Shown one piece after another: positions 654-23,504 of a stretch of DNA of 64,000 bases. Each line of letters begins with the position of its first letter. Position 1 is the stretch's first letter. The notes under the pieces are model-generated. The model did not search any database, was not told the origin of the DNA, and worked only from the letters and a program-made list of their open reading frames with translations. Origin of the DNA: Escherichia coli (GTDB taxonomy: Bacteria; Pseudomonadota; Gammaproteobacteria; Enterobacterales; Enterobacteriaceae); assembly GCF_048403405.1 (NCBI RefSeq), contig NZ_CP183129.1; one strand, written 5' to 3'. The position numbers and the translations under genes are program-made.

Positions 654-970
654 AAATTCTCCTGTAAAACGCGGAATATACCGTACCTCTTAGCGGGGAA
701 AAACAGGGTTATGCGGCAACGTCGAAATTAAATGTGATCTGCCACGCCTTTTATCACAAAAGTGTCTCCGGAAGTACGATGCAAATTTGCCTGGCAAAAT
801 AAGGATAATCAACATATTACGAATCGCTGCACACCTGTGCTGATGACTACTACGCAGAGAAACAAATGTGCAAGAGAAAGCGCTATTTCTCCCCATGCAA
901 AGAGTGAAAAATCGCTTTGAAAGGCCATCATGATGGGGTTATATCAGATCAAGCGGTGAGAAAGCGTATT

Positions 971-984
971 TGCACAAATGTGCA
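971..984. promoter_or_regulatory. Perfect 14-bp palindrome TGCACAAATGTGCA just upstream of the sorC start; candidate operator
   Basis: Palindrome read directly; ends 16 bp before the sorC ATG at 1001, with the AGGAGG RBS between them. Confidence 0.3.
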
Positions 985-1000
985 GAACCAGGAGGCGGCA

Positions 1001-1948
1001 ATGGAAAACAGTGACGATATCCGTTTGATTGTGAAGATTGCCCAACTCTATTACGAACAGGATATGACGCAGGCGCAAATCGCGCGCGAACTGGGTATTT
1101 ACCGCACCACCATCAGCCGCTTGCTTAAACGAGGCCGCGATCAGGGAATTGTCACCATCGCCATCAACTATGACTACAACGAAAATCTCTGGCTGGAGCA
1201 GCAACTGAAGCAAAAGTTTGGCCTGAAAGACGTTGTGGTGGTGTCGGGAAATGATGAGGATGAAGAGACTCAACTGGCGATGATGGGGTTACACGGCGCG
1301 CAACTGCTGGATCGCTTGCTGGAGCCTGGCGATATTGTCGGTTTTTCCTGGGGTCGCGCGGTGAGCGCACTGGTTGAAAACTTGCCGCAGGCGGGGCAAT
1401 CGCGGCAGTTAATCTGCGTACCAATTATTGGCGGACCGTCCGGTAAACTCGAAAGCCGCTATCACGTAAACACATTAACCTACAGCGCGGCAGCGAAGCT
1501 GAAAGGGGAATCGCATCTCGCAGATTTTCCGGCTCTGCTGGATAACCCCTTAATTCGTAATGGGATCATGCAGTCTCAGCACTTTAAAACCATCTCTGCC
1601 TACTGGGATAATCTGGATGTCGCCCTGGTGGGAATTGGCTCACCGGCCATTCGCGACGGCGCTAACTGGCATGCGTTTTATGGTGGTGAAGAGAGTGACG
1701 ACCTGAATGCCCGCCAGGTTGCTGGCGATATTTGCTCGCGCTTTTTTGATATTCACGGCGCAATGGTTGAAACGAATATGAGCGAAAAAACACTCTCTAT
1801 CGAAATGAATAAATTAAAGCAGGCGCGGTATTCCATTGGCATTGCCATGAGTGAAGAAAAATACAGCGGAATTGTTGGTGCACTGCGTGGAAAATATATT
1901 AATTGTCTGGTAACGAATAGCAGCACAGCTGAACTATTACTGAAATAA
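1001..1948 (+). CDS. sorC: SorC-family transcriptional regulator of the sorbose operon
   Basis: Track ORF 917-1948; likely true start is internal ATG at 1001 (MENSDDIRLIVKIAQLYYEQDMTQAQIARELGIYRTTISRLLKRGRDQGIV) preceded by AGGAGG. HTH N-terminus plus sugar-binding domain; first gene of a sorCDFBAME-like cluster. Confidence 0.8.
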   Translation: MENSDDIRLIVKIAQLYYEQDMTQAQIARELGIYRTTISRLLKRGRDQGIVTIAINYDYNENLWLEQQLKQKFGLKDVVVVSGNDEDEETQLAMMGLHGAQLLDRLLEPGDIVGFSWGRAVSALVENLPQAGQSRQLICVPIIGGPSGKLESRYHVNTLTYSAAAKLKGESHLADFPALLDNPLIRNGIMQSQHFKTISAYWDNLDVALVGIGSPAIRDGANWHAFYGGEESDDLNARQVAGDICSRFFDIHGAMVETNMSEKTLSIEMNKLKQARYSIGIAMSEEKYSGIVGALRGKYINCLVTNSSTAELLLK

Positions 1949-2017
1949 AAATCTTCCCGATGTTTACCGTAATAAAAATTACGGCGGGTCCCTATTATCT
2001 AAAATCAGGAGTCTGTT

Positions 2018-2824
2018 ATGCAAACGTGGTTAAATTTGCAGGATAAAATCATTATCGTCACCGGCGGCGCATCCGGTATTGGTCTGGCGATTGTAGAGGA
2101 ATTATTAGCACAAGGCGCAAACGTACAGATGGTAGATATTCACGGTGGCGATGGTCAATATGAAGGTCATAAAGGCTATCAGTTTTGGCCGACCGATATT
2201 TCCAGCGCCAAAGAGGTAAATCATACGGTAGCGGAAATTATCCAGCGTTTTGGTCGCATCGACGGTCTGGCCAATAACGCCGGGGTCAATTTCCCGCGTC
2301 TGCTGGTCGATGAGAAAGCGCCTGCCGGGCAGTATGAACTCAACGAAGCTGCATTCGAAAAAATGGTCAATATCAACCAGAAAGGCGTTTTTCTGATGTC
2401 GCAGGCGGTGGCGCGACAGATGGTCAAACAACATGATGGCGTGATTGTGAATGTTTCCTCAGAAAGTGGGCTGGAAGGCTCAGAAGGCCAAAGCTGTTAC
2501 GCCGCGACCAAAGCCGCGCTCAATAGCTTCACGCGCTCCTGGTCGAAAGAGCTGGGTAAGCACGGTATCCGTGTGGTCGGTATCGCGCCAGGGATTCTGG
2601 AAAAAACAGGACTGCGCACGCCGGAATATGAAGAAGCGCTGGCGTGGACGCGCAATATCACCGTCGAGCAGCTGCGTGAAGGCTATACCAAAAATTCCAT
2701 TCCTATTGGGCGCGCCGGAAGATTAGCAGAAGTGGCTGATTTTGTTTGTTATCTGCTGTCTGAACGCGCCAGCTATATCACCGGAGTAACCACTAACATT
2801 GCAGGCGGCAAAACGCGCGGCTAA
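2018..2824 (+). CDS. sorD: Short-chain dehydrogenase/reductase, sorbitol-6-phosphate dehydrogenase-like
   Basis: 268 aa with N-terminal TGGASGIGLA Rossmann motif and a downstream catalytic Y-x3-K motif (YAATK); RBS AGGAG upstream; position in operon. Confidence 0.8.
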   Translation: MQTWLNLQDKIIIVTGGASGIGLAIVEELLAQGANVQMVDIHGGDGQYEGHKGYQFWPTDISSAKEVNHTVAEIIQRFGRIDGLANNAGVNFPRLLVDEKAPAGQYELNEAAFEKMVNINQKGVFLMSQAVARQMVKQHDGVIVNVSSESGLEGSEGQSCYAATKAALNSFTRSWSKELGKHGIRVVGIAPGILEKTGLRTPEYEEALAWTRNITVEQLREGYTKNSIPIGRAGRLAEVADFVCYLLSERASYITGVTTNIAGGKTRG

Positions 2825-2833
2825 GGAGGCTTT

Positions 2834-3241
2834 ATGGTCAATGCCATTTTTTGCGCCCACGGCAAATTAGCCTGCGCCATGCTGGAATCGGTTCAGATGG
2901 TGTACGGCGATGCCAGGGTCGAGGCAGTTGAATTTGTGCCCGGCGAGAACGCCGGAGACATTGTGGCAAAGCTGGAGAAGTTAGTGAGCATTCACAATCA
3001 TGGCGAGTGGCTAATTGCCGTGGATTTACAGTGCGGTAGCCCGTGGAATGCAGCAGCGACGCTTGCGATGCGCAATCCGCACCTGCGGGTGATCAGCGGC
3101 CTTTCCCTGCCACTGGCGCTCGAACTGGTTGATAACCAGGACAGCATGAATGTTGATGAACTGTGTGAACACCTGACGCAAATCGCAAAGCAAACCTGCG
3201 TTGTCTGGAAACAACTGGCAACAGCGGAGGAGGATTTCTGA
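2834..3241 (+). CDS. sorF: PTS mannose/sorbose-family EIIA component
   Basis: 135 aa, MVNAIFCAHGKLA...; EIIA-Man fold signature with conserved His; RBS AAGGAGG. Confidence 0.8.
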   Translation: MVNAIFCAHGKLACAMLESVQMVYGDARVEAVEFVPGENAGDIVAKLEKLVSIHNHGEWLIAVDLQCGSPWNAAATLAMRNPHLRVISGLSLPLALELVDNQDSMNVDELCEHLTQIAKQTCVVWKQLATAEEDF

Positions 3242-3735
3242 TGAACATTACGCTCGCCCGCATTGATGACCGCCTGATCCACGGTCAGGTCACTACCGTC
3301 TGGTCGAAAGTGGCTAACGCCCAGCGCATTATTATCTGCAATGACGAAGTTTATAACGATGAAGTTCGCCGGACATTATTGCGTCAGGCTGCGCCACCGG
3401 GAATGAAGGTTAACGTGGTCAATATTGAAAAAGCCGTCGCGGTTTATCACAACCCGCAATATCAGGACGAAACCGTTTTTTATCTTTTCACTCGCCCACA
3501 GGATGCCTTAGCGATGGTTCGCCAGGGGGTAAAAATAGACACCCTGAATATTGGCGGCATGGCCTGGCGGCCCGGTAAAAAACAGTTAACCAAAGCGGTT
3601 TCATTAGATGATGATGATATTAACGCATTTTATGAGTTAAATAATCTTGGCGTCATACTGGATTTACGCGTCGTAGCGTCAGATCCCTCAATCAATATTA
3701 TCGACAAAATAAACGAACAGTTAATCGCAAATTAA
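3241..3735 (+). CDS. sorB: PTS mannose/sorbose-family EIIB component
   Basis: 164 aa, MNITLARIDDRLIHGQV... (EIIB-Man motif with phosphorylatable His); start overlaps sorF stop (TGATG). Confidence 0.8.
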   Translation: MNITLARIDDRLIHGQVTTVWSKVANAQRIIICNDEVYNDEVRRTLLRQAAPPGMKVNVVNIEKAVAVYHNPQYQDETVFYLFTRPQDALAMVRQGVKIDTLNIGGMAWRPGKKQLTKAVSLDDDDINAFYELNNLGVILDLRVVASDPSINIIDKINEQLIAN

Positions 3736-3800
3736 ATAATAGCGCCTGTGTACATATGCTTTAACAGGCAGGGATGACGACACTTAAAAGGTGACAAATC

Positions 3801-4598
3801 ATGGAAATAAGTACCCTACAAATCATTGCTATATTTCTTTTTTCCTGTATTGCCGGAATGGGCAGCGTGCTGGATGAATTTCAGACTCATCGCCCGTTAA
3901 TTGCCTGTACGGTGATTGGTTTAATTCTCGGTGATTTAAAAACCGGAATAATACTCGGTGGTACGCTGGAATTGATAGCTCTCGGCTGGATGAACGTCGG
4001 CGCGGCGCAATCTCCAGATTCTGCACTCGCCAGCATAATCTCCGCCATTCTGGTTATCGTTGGTCAGCAAAGCATCGCCACCGGAATCGCCATCGCGTTG
4101 CCTGTGGCTGCGGCAGGCCAGGTGCTGACGGTGTTTGCCCGTACCATCACAGTAGTGTTCCAGCACGCGGCGGATAAAGCAGCAGAAGAGGCGCGGTTTC
4201 GCACTCTCGATATTCTGCATGTCTCCGCGCTTGGCGTGCAGGCGCTGCGCGTTGCTATTCCGGCACTGATTGTCTCGCTGTTCGTCAGCGCCGATATGGT
4301 CAGCAATATGTTAAACGCCATTCCCGAATTTGTGACCCGAGGACTACAGATTGCTGGCGGTTTTATCGTGGTGGTCGGTTACGCCATGGTGCTACGTATG
4401 ATGGGCGTGAAATATTTGATGCCTTTCTTTTTCCTCGGTTTCCTCGCAGGTGGCTACCTCGATCTCAGTCTGCTGGCGTTCGGTGGCGTCGGCGTGATCA
4501 TGGCCCTGCTCTACATCCAGCTAAATCCACAGTGGCGTAAAGCTGAACCTCAACTCCAGGCCACCGCCTCCACCGCCCTTGACCAACTTGACGATTAA
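3801..4598 (+). CDS. sorA: PTS mannose/sorbose-family EIIC membrane component
   Basis: 265 aa hydrophobic multi-pass protein, ManY-like. Confidence 0.8.
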   Translation: MEISTLQIIAIFLFSCIAGMGSVLDEFQTHRPLIACTVIGLILGDLKTGIILGGTLELIALGWMNVGAAQSPDSALASIISAILVIVGQQSIATGIAIALPVAAAGQVLTVFARTITVVFQHAADKAAEEARFRTLDILHVSALGVQALRVAIPALIVSLFVSADMVSNMLNAIPEFVTRGLQIAGGFIVVVGYAMVLRMMGVKYLMPFFFLGFLAGGYLDLSLLAFGGVGVIMALLYIQLNPQWRKAEPQLQATASTALDQLDD

Positions 4599-4608
4599 CG
4601 GAGCCATC

Positions 4609-5433
4609 ATGGAACAGAGAAAAATTACACGCAGCGATCTGGTGAGCATGTTTCTGCGCTCCAACCTGCAACAGGCGTCCTTTAACTTTGAACGTATTCA
4701 CGGGCTGGGTTTTTGCTACGACATGATCCCCGCCATCAAGCGACTTTACCCATTAAAAGAGGATCAGGTTGCGGCGCTCAGGCGACACCTGGTGTTCTTC
4801 AATACCACGCCAGCCGTATGTGGCCCGGTCATCGGCGTCACTGCCGCCATGGAAGAGGCGCGGGCCAACGGCGCGGAAATTGATGACGGTACCATTAACG
4901 GCATCAAAGTCGGTCTGATGGGACCATTGGCAGGAGTTGGCGATCCACTGGTCTGGGGAACGCTGCGCCCGATTACCGCCGCGCTCGGCGCATCTCTGGC
5001 ACTTTCGGGCAACATTCTCGGCCCGCTGCTGTTTTTCTTTATTTTCAATGCGGTGCGTCTGGCGATGAAGTGGTATGGCCTACAGCTCGGCTTTCGCAAA
5101 GGGGTGAATATCGTCAGCGATATGGGCGGGAATGTGCTGCAAAAACTCACCGAAGGCGCGTCGATTCTCGGACTGTTTGTGATGGGCGTGCTGGTGACCA
5201 AATGGACGTCAATCAACGTACCGTTGGTGGTTTCACAAACGCATGCCGCCGATGGCTCCACCGTCACCATGACCGTGCAGAACATTCTCGACCAACTTTG
5301 CCCTGGTTTGCTGGCGCTCGGTCTGACGCTACTGATGGTTCGTCTGCTCAACAAAAAAATTAACCCGGTATGGCTGATTTTCGCCCTGTTTGGCTTAGGG
5401 ATTATCGGCAATGCGCTGGGCTTCCTGTCCTGA
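4609..5433 (+). CDS. sorM: PTS mannose/sorbose-family EIID membrane component
   Basis: Track ORF 4579-5433; start taken at ATG 4609 (MEQRKITRSDLVSMFLRSNLQQASFNFERIHGLGF, ManZ-like N-terminus) with GGAG RBS. Confidence 0.75.
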   Translation: MEQRKITRSDLVSMFLRSNLQQASFNFERIHGLGFCYDMIPAIKRLYPLKEDQVAALRRHLVFFNTTPAVCGPVIGVTAAMEEARANGAEIDDGTINGIKVGLMGPLAGVGDPLVWGTLRPITAALGASLALSGNILGPLLFFFIFNAVRLAMKWYGLQLGFRKGVNIVSDMGGNVLQKLTEGASILGLFVMGVLVTKWTSINVPLVVSQTHAADGSTVTMTVQNILDQLCPGLLALGLTLLMVRLLNKKINPVWLIFALFGLGIIGNALGFLS

Positions 5434-5484
5434 TTCTTCGCCCCGGCACGACTGCCGGGGCCATCGCTCAACATGAGGTGGTTT

Positions 5485-6714
5485 ATGAAAACAACAGCTC
5501 TGCGTCTTTATGGTAAACGTGATTTACGCCTGGAAACCTTTGATCTTCCTGAAATGCAGGAGGATGAAATCCTCGCGACGGTGGTCACCGACAGCCTGTG
5601 CCTCTCTTCCTGGAAAGAGGCCAATCTGGGTGAAAATCATAAAAAAGTACCCGACGATGTGGCGACCAACCCCATCATCATCGGCCACGAGTTTTGCGGC
5701 GATATTCTGGCCGTGGGTAAAAAGTGGCAGCACAAATTCCAGCCGGGTCAGCGTTATGTGATTCAGGCCAACCTGCAACTCCCCGACCGCCCGGACTGCC
5801 CCGGCTACTCCTTCCCGTGGGTAGGCGGCGAAGCGACGCATGTGGTTATTCCCAACGAGGTCATGGAACAAGATTGCCTGCTGGCATACGACGGCGAAAC
5901 CTATTTTGAAGGCTCGCTGGTTGAACCGCTTTCCTGCGTGATTGGCGCGTTCAACGCCAACTATCATCTTCAGGAAGGTAGTTATAACCACACGATGGGG
6001 ATTCGCCCGCAAGGGCGCACGCTGATCCTCGGCGGCACCGGACCAATGGGACTGTTGGCGATTGATTATGCGTTGCATGGACCGGTTAACCCGTCGCTGC
6101 TCGTCATTACCGATACCGACAACGACAAATTGAGTTATGCGCGCAAGCACTATCCATCAGAACCGCAAACACTGATTCATTATCTCAATGCCGCCGATGC
6201 AGCATTTGATACGTTAATGGCACTGAGTGGCGGTCACGGCTTCGATGATATTTTCGTCTTTGTGCCTAATGAAGGACTGGTGACTCTCGCCTCTTCCTTG
6301 CTGGCGACAGATGGTTGCCTGAATTTCTTCGCCGGACCGCAGGATAAACATTTCAGCGCGCCAATTAATTTCTACGATGTGCATTATGCATTTACCCACT
6401 ACGTGGGCACGTCAGGCGGCAATACCGATGACATGCGCGCAGCAGTCAAATTGATTGAAGAGAAAAAAGTGCAGGCCGCAAAAGTGGTAACACATATTCT
6501 TGGGCTGAATGCCGCGGGCGAAACCACGCTTGAATTGCCTGCCGTCGGCGGCGGCAAAAAGCTGGTGTATACCGGGAAATACCTGCCGCTTATGTCACTC
6601 ACGCAGATTCAGGATCAAGCACTGGCGGCAATTCTGGCGCGTCATCAGGGGATCTGGTCCGGTGAGGCGGAGCAATATCTGCTCACTCATGCAGAGGCAA
6701 TTTCCCATGATTAA
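5485..6714 (+). CDS. sorE: Zinc-dependent alcohol dehydrogenase-family enzyme, sorbose-1-phosphate reductase-like
   Basis: Track ORF 5473-6714; start taken at ATG 5485 (MKTTALRLYGKRDLRLE) after GAGGTGG RBS. MDR/zinc-ADH family, last gene of the sor cluster. Confidence 0.7.
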   Translation: MKTTALRLYGKRDLRLETFDLPEMQEDEILATVVTDSLCLSSWKEANLGENHKKVPDDVATNPIIIGHEFCGDILAVGKKWQHKFQPGQRYVIQANLQLPDRPDCPGYSFPWVGGEATHVVIPNEVMEQDCLLAYDGETYFEGSLVEPLSCVIGAFNANYHLQEGSYNHTMGIRPQGRTLILGGTGPMGLLAIDYALHGPVNPSLLVITDTDNDKLSYARKHYPSEPQTLIHYLNAADAAFDTLMALSGGHGFDDIFVFVPNEGLVTLASSLLATDGCLNFFAGPQDKHFSAPINFYDVHYAFTHYVGTSGGNTDDMRAAVKLIEEKKVQAAKVVTHILGLNAAGETTLELPAVGGGKKLVYTGKYLPLMSLTQIQDQALAAILARHQGIWSGEAEQYLLTHAEAISHD

Positions 6715-6872
6715 TCGCGCTACTTAACTCTGCATGTCGCTGGCTGGTCGCCGCGGCAACTTCGCGACCGGATGTGCGGCTGATTGCTGAAGCAGCACAA
6801 TTTGCATGAGAAGGATAAAAAATATCAGCGCCTTAAGGGGCGCTCAAATTGGTGGCAAAGTACACATTGTTT

Positions 6873-6975
6873 ATGCCGGATGCGGAATGAAGCCTTATTC
6901 GGCATACATAATCTCGAAAATTCAATATATTGCAGTTATCTGGTAGGACTGGTAAGCGTAGCGCATCAGGCAATG
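6873..6975. repeat. REP/BIME-like palindromic units between sorE and pepE
   Basis: Two REP-like units, GCCGGATGCGGAATGAAGCCTTATTCGGCATAC and GGTAAGCGTAGCGCATCAGGCAATG, in the intergenic region. Confidence 0.5.
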
Positions 6976-7095
6976 CTGTGTTTGTCATCAGTCTCAGCGC
7001 CCGGTGCAATACGTGACATCGTGAGCCATGTCAGTAAGTGGTTAAATTCGCAGTGGTAGCATGCCTCCCGTGATTTCTTACTAACCGGAGAAGTA

Positions 7096-7785
7096 ATGGA
7101 ACTGCTTTTATTGAGTAACTCGACGCTGCCGGGTAAAGCCTGGCTGGAACATGCACTGCCGCTAATTGCTGAACAGTTGCAGGGTCGCCGTTCAGCGGTG
7201 TTTATCCCTTTCGCTGGCGTAACGCAGACCTGGGATGATTACACAGCGAAAACGGCTGCGGTTCTCGCTCCGCTGGGTGTTTCTGTCACCGGTATTCATA
7301 GCGTTGTCGATCCCGTTGCCGCGATTGAAAATGCTGAGATCGTGATTGTCGGCGGCGGTAATACTTTCCAGTTGCTGAAACAGTGCCGCGAGCGCGGGCT
7401 GCTGGCACCAATTACTGACGTGGTGAAACGTGGCGCGCTGTATATTGGCTGGAGCGCAGGCGCTAACCTTGCTTGCCCAACCATTCGTACCACCAACGAT
7501 ATGCCGATTGTCGATCCGCAAGGTTTCGATGCGCTAAATCTGTTCCCGCTGCAAATCAACCCGCACTTCACCAACGCGCTGCCGGAAGGTCATAAAGGTG
7601 AAACCCGTGAACAGCGTATTCGCGAACTGCTGGTCGTCGCGCCAGAACTCACAATTATTGGTCTGCCGGAAGGTAACTGGATCACAGTGAGTAAAGGTCA
7701 CGCAACGCTGGGTGGCCCGAACACCACTTATGTGTTTAAGGCTGGTGAAGAAGCGGTTCCGCTGGAAGCGGGTCACCGTTTTTAA
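7096..7785 (+). CDS. pepE: Peptidase E (alpha-aspartyl dipeptidase)
   Basis: 229 aa, [41 protein letters not shown]...; S51 peptidase family. Confidence 0.9.
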
Positions 7786-7792
7786 GTGAATT

Positions 7793-7860
7793 GCCGGATG
7801 CATGATCCGGCATCTTGTACATAGTGCCTGATGCGACGCTTTACATGTCTTATCAGGCCT
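7793..7860. repeat. REP element between pepE and yjbB
   Basis: Canonical REP motif TGCCTGATGCGACGCT...TCTTATCAGGCC plus short palindrome GCCGGATGCATGATCCGGC. Confidence 0.55.
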
Positions 7861-7874
7861 TCAGGGTCACGGTA

Positions 7875-9506
7875 TTAATACTCGTCCCGTCCTTCATCTT
7901 CATCCGGCTGTTCCAGCACACTGTAAGCCACCGAACAAAACAGCGAGTTCAGACGCTGCATATCTCCCAGTAAGCCTAAATGTAGCGAACTGGTTTCAAT
8001 ACTCTGCACGTTTTGCTGGTGCAGGCGATCGACGTGGGCGTGAGAATAGCGGCGATTAAGAATGCGAAAACGATGTTTGCTGCGGCGCAAACGACGGGCG
8101 CTGGTAACATCGCCAGAGAAGAAAACCGACATTGCCAGTTTTAAATTACTGAGCAATTGCTCATAGAGCGCATCCAGTTCCTTCAAGCCATCAAGCGAAA
8201 ATGCTCGCCTTGCAGCCAGCGATTTGTCGGCAATTTCGCTGCCCATGCGCTCGACGATATCGGAGGCCTGCTCAAGGTTAAGCGACATTTCGATGATCTC
8301 CGCCCAGCGACGCGACTCTTCCTCCGCCAGCTCTTCTTTTGGCATTCGCGCCAGATACAGCTTAATGGCGGTGTAGAGAACGTTGATATCATCTGCCAGC
8401 TTACGCAGCTCTTTCTCCTGCCGTGGCTCGCCGTGCATCACTTTATTCAACCCTTCCATCATCTGTTCCATGGCGTCGCCAATGCGCAGGGTTTCGCGCG
8501 CGGCGTTCGCCAGAGCAAGCGTGGGCGTATCCAGCGCGCTGACATCCAGATGTTTAGGCCGTAGCTGGGTATCCAGTTCCGGTTCATCGCGAATAATCGT
8601 TTTGCAAAACCGTGCCATCGGGTCAACAAATGGCAGCATGACCAGGCAACGTACAAGGTTGTAGAAGACATGGAAATAGATCACCAGTTCCGCTTTTGGC
8701 AATGACAACTTCCCCATTGTCTCTGCCAGCAAATGGACAAACGGCAGGATAATCAGGCTACCCACCAGCTTAAACAGCAGACTACCCAGCGCGACACGGC
8801 GGGCTGCGGCATTGGCGGCACTGTTGTTGAGCATCGCCAGCAGGCCGGAACCGAGGTTAGCACCAATCACCAGACAGAGCGCCACGGGGAAGGAGATAAT
8901 GCCTGCAGCGGTCAGAGTCGCGGTCAGCAGTACAGCAGCAAGGCTGGAGTAGCTGATAATGGCGAACATCGCGCCAATCAGCGCATCCAGCAGAATGTCA
9001 CCCGTCAGCGAGGCAAAGATCACCTGAACGCCGTTTGCCTGGGTGATCGGCGTTACGGCCTGCACAATCAACTCCAGCGCCAGCAAAATCAACCCAAGAC
9101 CAATACCGACGCGGCCCAGTTGCCCGGCGCGTGACTGTTTGCGTCCGAGGAAAAAAATCACGCCGATAAAAATAAGTAATGGTGACAGCCAGGATAAATC
9201 GAAGGTGAGAATACGCGCCATTAGCGCCGTCCCGACATCTGCACCCAGCACAATCACCAGAGCCGGTGCGAGGGCTACCAGATCCTGAGCGACGAACGAG
9301 GTCACCAGCATGGTGGTGGCATTACTGCTCTGTACCAGTGCGGTAACGCCGATCCCCGCGCAAAAGGCGAGCGGCTTTTTTTCGACGCTCCGGCTAAGGA
9401 CAGTACGCAAACGCGCGCCGAAGACGCGCATTACGCCGGTTCGAACAATATGCGTCCCCCAGACCAGCAGGGCGACGGCAGAAAGCAGGTGAAGCAGCGT
9501 TAACAC
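7875..9506 (-). CDS. yjbB: Na+/phosphate symporter-family inner membrane protein
   Basis: 543 aa; hydrophobic N-terminal half (PNaS-type) and PhoU-like C-terminal half. Confidence 0.85.
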   Translation of the reverse strand: MLTLLHLLSAVALLVWGTHIVRTGVMRVFGARLRTVLSRSVEKKPLAFCAGIGVTALVQSSNATTMLVTSFVAQDLVALAPALVIVLGADVGTALMARILTFDLSWLSPLLIFIGVIFFLGRKQSRAGQLGRVGIGLGLILLALELIVQAVTPITQANGVQVIFASLTGDILLDALIGAMFAIISYSSLAAVLLTATLTAAGIISFPVALCLVIGANLGSGLLAMLNNSAANAAARRVALGSLLFKLVGSLIILPFVHLLAETMGKLSLPKAELVIYFHVFYNLVRCLVMLPFVDPMARFCKTIIRDEPELDTQLRPKHLDVSALDTPTLALANAARETLRIGDAMEQMMEGLNKVMHGEPRQEKELRKLADDINVLYTAIKLYLARMPKEELAEEESRRWAEIIEMSLNLEQASDIVERMGSEIADKSLAARRAFSLDGLKELDALYEQLLSNLKLAMSVFFSGDVTSARRLRRSKHRFRILNRRYSHAHVDRLHQQNVQSIETSSLHLGLLGDMQRLNSLFCSVAYSVLEQPDEDEGRDEY

Positions 9507-14749: not shown

Positions 14750-18659
<3,910 letters not shown>

Positions 18660-23432: not shown

Positions 23433-23504
23433 GCTGCCCCTGCCGTGCCTGCCCAGGCTGGAGAAGACGCGCCAGCGTCGCACCCGGCATTTTTTTCACC
23501 AACG

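Follow-up and report, generated by a model that had tools for sequence, protein, structure and literature searches.

The palindromic REP/BIME elements of Escherichia coli became known some 40 years ago, and the copies examined here are typical of them. One class, BIME-1, also goes by the names RIB (reiterative IHF BIME) and RIP (repetitive IHF-binding palindromic) elements. A BIME-1 combines a y unit and a z1 unit separated by a long conserved L linker, often with an IHF site, and occurs in single copies (PMC3333891). The long form of the z unit, z2, is the one found in BIME-2 according to three concordant papers (among them PMC3333891 and PMC4550694), and the short form found in the left cluster of the present locus is therefore taken as z1. 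A GTAG/CTAC tetranucleotide is conserved at the foot of REPs and is needed by the REP-associated transposase, and the roles reported for REPs include terminators or attenuators, mRNA stabilisers, binding sites for IHF, gyrase and Pol I, and targets of insertion sequences (PMC3333891). For one such sequence, IS1397, experiments have shown insertion to be specific for E. coli REPs (PMC1525189). REPs that lie less than 16 nt past a stop codon stall terminating ribosomes, according to the summary of Liang et al. 2015 given in PMC12306157.

Here we describe the two palindrome clusters that flank pepE in the window, by which we mean the whole 64,000-nucleotide stretch of E. coli DNA that was analyzed. 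An earlier note had reported REP-like units on both sides of this gene, and they are indeed there, within a few bases of where they had been placed. Judged by their alignments, the clusters are ordinary REP/BIME copies and so of an already-known kind. Our main reading, to which we give a probability of about 0.9, is that both are resident, non-coding and non-autonomous E. coli REP/BIME repeats that have settled in spacers at the 3′ ends of transcription units. The query stretch of the window is 100% identical in strain TUM14771, and the surrounding locus is laid out as follows.

Ends at 653, minus strand: rluF.
1001-1948: sorC, followed by sorD, sorF, sorB, sorA, sorM and sorE (to 6714).
6709-6822, plus strand: remnant of an eighth gene after sorE, keeping ~55 nt from its start and ~58 nt from its end, with a 700-bp internal deletion and an early stop.
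6827-6844, plus strand: hairpin AGCGCC-TTAA-GGGGCGCT, just past the remnant gene and outside the BIME (-11.4 kcal/mol, z-score -3.9).
7003-7021, plus strand: conserved box upstream of pepE, ACATCGTGAGCCATGTCAG, where K-12 homology resumes (7006 by BLAST).
7096-7785, plus strand: pepE, stop codon 7783-7785.
7875-9506, minus strand: yjbB, stop codon 7875-7877, convergent with pepE across a spacer of 89 bp; metH is next.

Counts for E. coli were obtained by BLAST against 5426 complete genomes, and REP units were typed by blastn-short with three consensus sequences (y, long z and short z). We validated these consensus sequences on K-12, where they gave 100% or near-100% matches at the classical REP sites aceA-aceK, pgi, malE-malF and lamB-malM. 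The RefSeq annotation of K-12 contains no REP features, even at malE-malF, and was uninformative. A degenerate REP pattern that imposed a 16-nt gap found no matches because the spacing of the units varies. A promoter scan of 6600-8000 returned no sites, and a literature search on sor, pepE and metH returned nothing relevant.

The left cluster is a full BIME-1 made of a y unit, a long L linker and an inverse short z unit.

6860-6986, plus strand: whole BIME-1 (RIB/RIP-type), made up of left flank, y, L linker, inverted short z1 and right flank, with both flanks conserved.
6874-6907, plus strand: y unit TGCCGGATGCGGAATGAAGCCTTATTCGGCATAC, decayed, with upper stem GGAATGAAGCC versus GGCGTGAACGCC and foot ATAC versus CTAC.
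6908-6942, plus strand: L linker of 35 nt, containing AAATTCAATATATTGCAG, with the core ATTCAATATATTG at 6920-6932.
6943-6972, minus strand: short z (z1) unit GTAGGACTGGTAAGCGTAGCGCATCAGGCA in inverse orientation, with GTAG kept on the plus strand (6943-6946).

The short-z consensus matched the minus strand of 6943-6972 with 2 mismatches in 30 positions, compared with 0 matches in 100 shuffles. The y unit, whose upper stem is mutated and includes a 1-nt deletion, nevertheless aligned with the canonical y units of four paralogues. Within the linker, the core ATTCAATATATTG differs at one position from the IHF consensus, WATCAANNNNTTR. The linker core, read as AAATTCAAtATATTG, is nearly invariant across five aligned copies, and strain N3 has substitutions within the IHF-like core. 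BLAST with 6868-6980 found a median of at least 40 similar places per E. coli genome among the 5426, and full-length paralogues of the left block at 83% identity were found in sor-negative K-12. The four paralogues compared lie at pgm-ybfP, gloC-aspC, ysaA-avtA and yiiF-fdhE, and all inspected copies are intergenic. The 113-nt left block aligned with these four from end to end at 87% mean column identity, or over ~127 nt when the flanks are counted; the conserved flanks read GT.C.C.TTGTTTA on the left and, in three of the four paralogues, AAT..TG.GTTTGT on the right. A profile built from the four paralogues alone, with the window copy left out, recovered 6862-6981 with E = 6e-31 over profile positions 3-123. 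The same profile found no second full BIME-1 copy in the 64-kb window, and the one copy present stands downstream of the sor operon, in keeping with the description of these elements as single copies at the 3′ ends of transcription units.

The right cluster is of a different build and is, from the alignments below, one BIME-2-like unit with a truncated y.

7792-7812, plus strand: mini-hairpin TGCCGGATGCATGATCCGGCA, a perfect 8-bp stem that starts 6 nt past the pepE stop codon.
7813-7824, plus strand: linker TCTTGTACATAG, 12 nt, aligned to the naRNA4 linker.
7825-7862, plus strand: long z (z2) unit TGCCTGATGCGACGCTTTACATGTCTTATCAGGCCTTC, 14 nt from the yjbB stop codon, with foot CTTC versus CTAC.

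Alignment to the Rfam naRNA4 model presented the mini-hairpin as a y unit in which the 16-nt upper stem-loop has been replaced by 5 nt. Its stem is kept in E. whittamii, Escherichia sp. MOD1 and E. albertii, and one outer pair is altered in strain SCPM-O-B-8794. The 12-nt linker is equal in length to the head-to-head linker of the K-12 aceA-aceK BIME-2. The two halves of z2 matched the consensus at 16/16 and 14/14 positions, with mutations in the loop, the upper stem and the foot, and the K-12 orthologue of this unit is near-canonical (TGCCTGATGCGACGCTTGACGCGTCTTATCAGGCCTAC). Similarity to REP/BIME consensus, on which the reading in the earlier note depended, was thus found on both sides of pepE, at 28/30 for z1 and in the halves of z2. 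A typical (median) E. coli genome has 13 places similar to the right block, and the architecture of this block is shared by K-12 and four other Escherichia lineages. The Rfam family RF02564 (naRNA4, REP325 y-l-z2) aligned over its full length to 7792-7859, with 38.4 bits and E = 1e-5 on the plus strand and 26.1 bits on the minus strand; the plus-strand score is below the gathering threshold of 59.5 bits, and membership in naRNA4 was rejected. The multiple, alternating tandem y and z2 units of BIME-2 were not found in the right cluster, which holds one z2 and one truncated y with no tandem repetition. Beyond Escherichia, the pepE-yjbB spacer holds palindromes in every other genus examined, and in Pseudocitrobacter, most Citrobacter, Klebsiella and one Enterobacter locus these carry the GTAG/CTAC foot of the REPs of their own genus.

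An independent recognition of the right z2 as a palindromic unit is provided by IS1397. In strain M21170 this element sits inside the z2 loop, flanked by a duplicated TTA that corresponds to 7841-7843 of the window, and the same z2::IS1397 junction is present in 153 of the 5426 complete E. coli genomes (~3%). The suggestion in the earlier note that such clusters often mark insertion hot spots is borne out at this side of pepE. The IS1397 landing site is useful for strain typing and for annotation of the lineage that carries it.

Both clusters show decay in this strain. The left y hairpin folds at -13.8 kcal/mol (z-score -3.3) versus -21.3 kcal/mol for the consensus y, and the left z1 hairpin at -5.8 versus -12.9 kcal/mol for its consensus, with a z-score of -0.4 that is no better than shuffles. 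In this strain z1 barely qualifies as a stem-loop-forming palindrome. On the right, the z2 hairpin reaches -15.3 kcal/mol (z-score -4.9) versus -21.3 for the consensus and the mini-hairpin -13.3 kcal/mol (z-score -3.9), and both strands of the cluster fold better than shuffles (z-scores of -3.1 and -2.7). The GTAG/CTAC foot survives in z1, whereas y and z2 of this strain have ATAC and CTTC in its place. The CTAC foot of y is kept in the other sor+ strains aligned, and that of z2 in K-12, strain 20, E. whittamii and most other strains and species compared. Because the foot is intact at the same positions in relatives, its loss in the window would represent recent decay of true members of the families. 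The transposase needs GTAG, so y and z2 of the window are probably no longer substrates, and the units of the window are probably old copies that no longer move. Every sor+ E. coli allele examined has the same mutated y upper stem, so the left copy is itself old.

A comparison with four other Escherichia lineages gave identities of 83-93% for the pepE-yjbB spacer and 80-88% for the BIME-1, with 72-86% at four-fold-type third codon positions of pepE in the same lineages. From these values the right cluster looks mildly constrained or homogenized by gene conversion from other REP copies, on a comparison of 89 sites only, and the left cluster appears to evolve close to neutrally. Among ~8 distinct orthologues of the right hairpins most pairs never vary, and the changes in the upper stem are one-sided by eye.

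The left BIME-1 has a history of its own across strains and genera. It occupies the same site in E. whittamii, Escherichia sp. MOD1 and strain SCPM-O-B-8794, with a canonical y unit in the first two and a few substitutions in the copy of the third. In E. albertii its orthologue is a tandem array of 147 bp x 3.9 copies (four), and in Pseudocitrobacter a BIME-1 is present at the site in inverted orientation. None was found in the aligned Raoultella and Enterobacter spacers, the element being missing from most Enterobacter loci, and a profile search of the sorE-pepE spacer of Citrobacter and Klebsiella loci returned no BIME-1. Two E. coli strains in which the eighth gene is intact were examined, and they differ from each other as well: JNEC-KY178 has a BIME-1 with a shortened L linker, and strain 20 has none. 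Strain 20 also lacks the 3′ half of the 6827-6844 hairpin; window positions ~6835-6997 are replaced by ~17 nt, and a spacer of 122 bp remains. The left BIME-1 is dispensable, as it is missing from sor+ strain 20, from all sor-negative strains and from several genera, and the sorE-pepE spot is clearly indel-prone and structurally unstable.

The eighth gene itself follows sorE in most other taxa, with an ATG that overlaps the sorE stop codon. Its product of 270 aa is shikimate 5-dehydrogenase-like (NCBIfam NF009202, 462 bits), and the gene is intact in 177 of the 5426 E. coli genomes. The hairpin at 6827-6844 is likely the end-of-operon hairpin of sor. A hairpin at the same position was found at one Raoultella locus (L028) and one Enterobacter locus (L029), and its presence was unclear in the other two aligned. 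A minus-strand terminator called by the scan at 6844-6827 was rejected, since the call was due only to an upstream A-run and the structure is really the plus-strand hairpin.

The left cluster had also been read as the right-hand boundary of a sor insertion, and this part of the earlier note has to be given up. K-12 matches the window at 508-688 and 7006-7938, and an 86-bp K-12 stretch replaces 689-7005. The left BIME-1 is therefore not at the edge but ~20 nt inside the DNA missing from sor-negative strains, and so outside the K-12 genome, which is the basis of REP catalogues. We carried out a synteny survey by a SorE search with one genome per species, which gave loci from many Enterobacteriaceae. 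The order rluF-sorCDFBAME-(shikimate-dehydrogenase-like gene)-pepE-yjbB was found in E. whittamii, Escherichia sp., Pseudocitrobacter, several Citrobacter, Klebsiella, Raoultella and Enterobacter; in E. albertii, where the contig ends before rluF, and in Cedecea, where pepE is fragmentary, the order is consistent as far as it is present. Within Escherichia the sor genes are 91-95% identical to the window, and pepE, yjbB and metH 90-96%, which is the pattern expected for vertical inheritance. Since the synteny is shared by at least six genera and sor has diverged as much as its flanks, sor is ancestral and the sor-negative state is a deletion, and the status of genomic island or insertion junction is not supported. 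The deletion allele is very uniform, found in 2557 genomes at 99.6-100% identity among the matches listed, and the window-type arrangement in 2681. The island-boundary reading is thus wrong in direction and probably also in causality, and annotations should not present sor as an inserted island whose borders are marked by REPs. Instead, the locus represents an old three-state polymorphism in which sor is present with an intact eighth gene, present with the eighth gene internally deleted as in the window, or deleted as in K-12, and the REP clusters are passengers of the spacers.

Along the lines of the earlier note, the left cluster could be the scar or substrate of the event behind the sor+/sor- polymorphism, with REP-mediated recombination or an insertion hot spot setting the island boundary. 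REPs have been reported at recombination junctions (PMC1525189), the BIME-1 ends ~20 nt from the point where K-12 homology restarts, the second, independent indel in sor+ strain 20 also ends just right of the BIME-1, and the unit has been amplified fourfold in E. albertii. We nonetheless consider this explanation distinctly unlikely. Since sor is ancestral in at least six genera, nothing was inserted, and neither a REP nor a REP fragment was found in the sor-negative K-12 spacer, the comparison that had been proposed as a check. Homology breaks not at a REP but at the start of the box ACATCGTGAGCCATGTCAG, which is conserved across genera; selection for an intact pepE promoter would leave such a break, and its position at the box edge would look like a deletion that spared the promoter. 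In its left 30 nt, the K-12 filler matches the spacer next to rluF in Citrobacter and Klebsiella. Beside the pepE box, K-12 and the BIME-1-less strain 20 share CCAGAAGCAATG, whereas the window and other Escherichia have C(C/T)GGTGCAAT, and the shared motif hints at a chromosome already lacking BIME-1 as the background of the sor deletion. We also considered whether a simple deletion within the present sor+ arrangement could have produced the 86-bp K-12 filler and rejected this, as local alignment was no better than shuffles except for a borderline match at GATAAAAAATA. The closeness of the BIME-1 to the supposed junction is, on these comparisons, most likely incidental. A different proposal takes the instability of the spot itself as its subject: the sorE-pepE spacer may hold a unit of gain, loss or amplification of ~147-163 nt that consists of the BIME-1 and ~25-30 nt of its left flank and is bounded by the short inverted motifs GGGCGCT...AGCGCCC. 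This larger unit is suggested because the same segment is missing as a block in one sor+ haplotype, is tandem ~4x in E. albertii and is inverted in Pseudocitrobacter. Although we think the proposal unlikely, it would have consequences if true. BIME-1s, described as static single copies, would still be mobilized or amplified as composite units, and the locus could, together with the genus-specific pepE-yjbB palindromes, be a natural series for REP turnover.

Our main reading, that the clusters are resident REP/BIME repeats, allows some proposals for what they might do where they are. The left BIME-1, on the plus strand and 3′ of sorE, would be transcribed as the last part of the sor mRNA should transcription continue beyond the 6827-6844 hairpin. 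Its hairpins would then slow 3′-to-5′ exonucleases and dampen read-through into pepE, and as DNA its L linker would offer a putative IHF site. The left cluster may be viewed as a decaying RIB-type element whose contribution to the stretch between sor and the pepE promoter would be, at most, weak hairpins and an IHF site. The right cluster lies in an 89-bp convergent spacer and is therefore probably in the 3′ UTRs of both the pepE and yjbB mRNAs, which would share the hairpin pair. These hairpins start 6 nt and 14 nt past the respective stop codons, which would place them within the range for ribosome stalling. Similar observations might be explained if the clusters were intrinsic (Rho-independent) terminators of the classical kind, serving sor, pepE and yjbB and resembling REPs by chance. 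Both do stand at 3′ ends of transcription units with stable hairpins, and a weakly T-rich tail (ATCTTGT) comes after the mini-hairpin at 7792-7812, but a terminator scan of 6600-8000 found no hairpin with a T-run at either cluster. Moreover, sor has its own hairpin upstream of the BIME-1, and a chance resemblance would have to account for families whose members number in the tens per genome and have linker, flanks and foot in common besides the hairpin. We regard terminators of this kind as a very improbable explanation. Still less probability, and hardly any, goes to the proposal that the right cluster specifies a small RNA of the naRNA4 (REP325) type, one that associates with the nucleoid and works with HU in DNA condensation. 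Qian et al. found that many REPs are transcribed and that two-hairpin RNAs are the active ones (PMC4550694), and the full-length alignment to RF02564 contains the two hairpins that the model requires. However, the score is well under the gathering score, the y hairpin is truncated, there is a single unit in place of the six-unit REP325 array, and the likeness is fully explained by shared REP ancestry. 

Comparison with the known systems places each cluster close to a described class while marking where this strain departs from it. The left cluster resembles BIME-1 in its y unit, its long L linker with an IHF-type core, its inverted short z and its conserved flanks. Compared with the BIME-1s of E. 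coli at large, it is a decayed copy, with damage to the y stem, an ATAC foot and a weak z1 stem, and the roughly fourfold tandem orthologue of E. albertii departs from the description of BIME-1 as a single copy. The right cluster resembles the BIME-2s of K-12 aceA-aceK and REP325 in combining a y-derived hairpin, a 12-nt linker and a z2 with facing heads, and differs from them as a single unit whose y has no upper stem-loop and whose z2 has a CTTC foot in this strain. As a target site it behaves as published for IS1397, with insertion in the central z2 loop and a 3-bp duplication in 153 genomes (PMC1525189), whereas the window, unlike those IS1397-bearing strains, carries an uninterrupted z2.

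The synteny of rluF, the sor genes and pepE is found in at least six genera, which shows that sor is ancestral at this locus and that the K-12 state is a deletion. Among the 5426 complete E. coli genomes searched, the locus occurs with sor and an intact eighth gene (177 genomes), with sor and an internally deleted eighth gene, as in the window (2681 genomes), or without sor, a uniform 86-bp filler standing in its place (2557 genomes). The features concerned, in window coordinates, are as follows.

689-7005: DNA of the sor strain, as compared with the rluF-pepE spacer of K-12 (L001)
6709-6822: remnant of an eighth sor-operon gene, shikimate 5-dehydrogenase-like (NF009202), unannotated
6838-6859 and 6981-7002: 22-nt inverted repeat around BIME-1, 77% complementary
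7003-7021: conserved box ACATCGTGAGCCATGTCAG upstream of pepE
23464-23482: lone 19-nt stretch identical to the centre of the long z consensus (TGCGACGCTGGCGCGTCTT); the outer stem is missing

The ATG of the eighth gene overlaps the stop codon of sorE, and the gene as found in the window has lost 700 bp from its interior and runs into a premature stop. Outside E. coli, intact versions of it occur in other Escherichia species and in Citrobacter, Klebsiella and Raoultella. The tblastn match to sorE itself is split into two overlapping pieces in E. albertii (L051 1517-2772) and in Escherichia sp. MOD1-EC7003 (L053 8001-9226), a pattern that suggests frameshifted pseudogenes or assembly errors.

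Divergence along the locus is uneven in Pseudocitrobacter. When its three loci (L015, L016 and L087) are compared with the E. coli record L002, the genes from yjbD through rluF to sor are 86-92% identical, whereas lysC, pepE and yjbB are only 80-82% identical; for comparison, Citrobacter is about 78-86% identical to E. coli throughout. A variant of the rluF-sorC spacer is also common to Escherichia and Pseudocitrobacter. This pattern may reflect an old exchange of a segment whose right end would lie within the spacer that bears BIME-1. To the right of that element, the break in homology between sor-positive and sor-negative strains falls exactly at the box ACATCGTGAGCCATGTCAG, which is kept in Escherichia, Raoultella and Enterobacter. 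Read as CGTGA-N6-TCAGT, the box resembles a CRP-type site and would be a candidate for one.

On the other side of pepE, palindromes are present in the orthologous convergent pepE-yjbB spacers of every genus examined (L015-L031). GTAG/CTAC feet mark those of Pseudocitrobacter, most Citrobacter, Klebsiella and one Enterobacter locus; the palindromes of Raoultella and the other Enterobacter loci are GC-rich and lack such a foot. The Klebsiella spacer is 516 bp long, with palindromes in multiple copies. In E. coli strain M21170 (L008 5195-6628), IS1397 lies within the loop of the z2 unit of this spacer, its target TTA corresponding to window positions 7841-7843. An identical junction occurs in 153 of the 5426 complete genomes, and among the matches listed each genome with the junction has about 10 places matching IS1397 ends, which suggests that the junction is a lineage marker. 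In one sor-negative strain, WP7-S17-ESBL-04 (L009 1093-4331), pepE is interrupted by the IS66-family element ISEc47.

Elsewhere in the window, the 19-nt match at 23464-23482 could be either a REP fragment or a chance occurrence. The gene between iclR and aceK (L002 17101-19296, about 14750-16945 in the window) bears the name of a type III effector, EspL4, in the RefSeq record of this strain, and its positional counterpart in K-12 is named arpA (ankyrin-like regulator).

The left arm of the 22-nt inverted repeat lies inside both the block (window about 6835-6997) missing from strain 20, a sor-positive E. coli without BIME-1, and the tandem unit of E. albertii, which argues that the unit gained, lost or amplified exceeds canonical BIME-1. 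In E. albertii NBRC 107761 (L051 3602-4177), the orthologous BIME-1 forms a 147-bp unit repeated in 3.9 copies with 93% matches, and this unit takes in about 30 nt of the left flank. BIME-1 elements have been described as single-copy, whereas the E. albertii orthologue is tandemly amplified.
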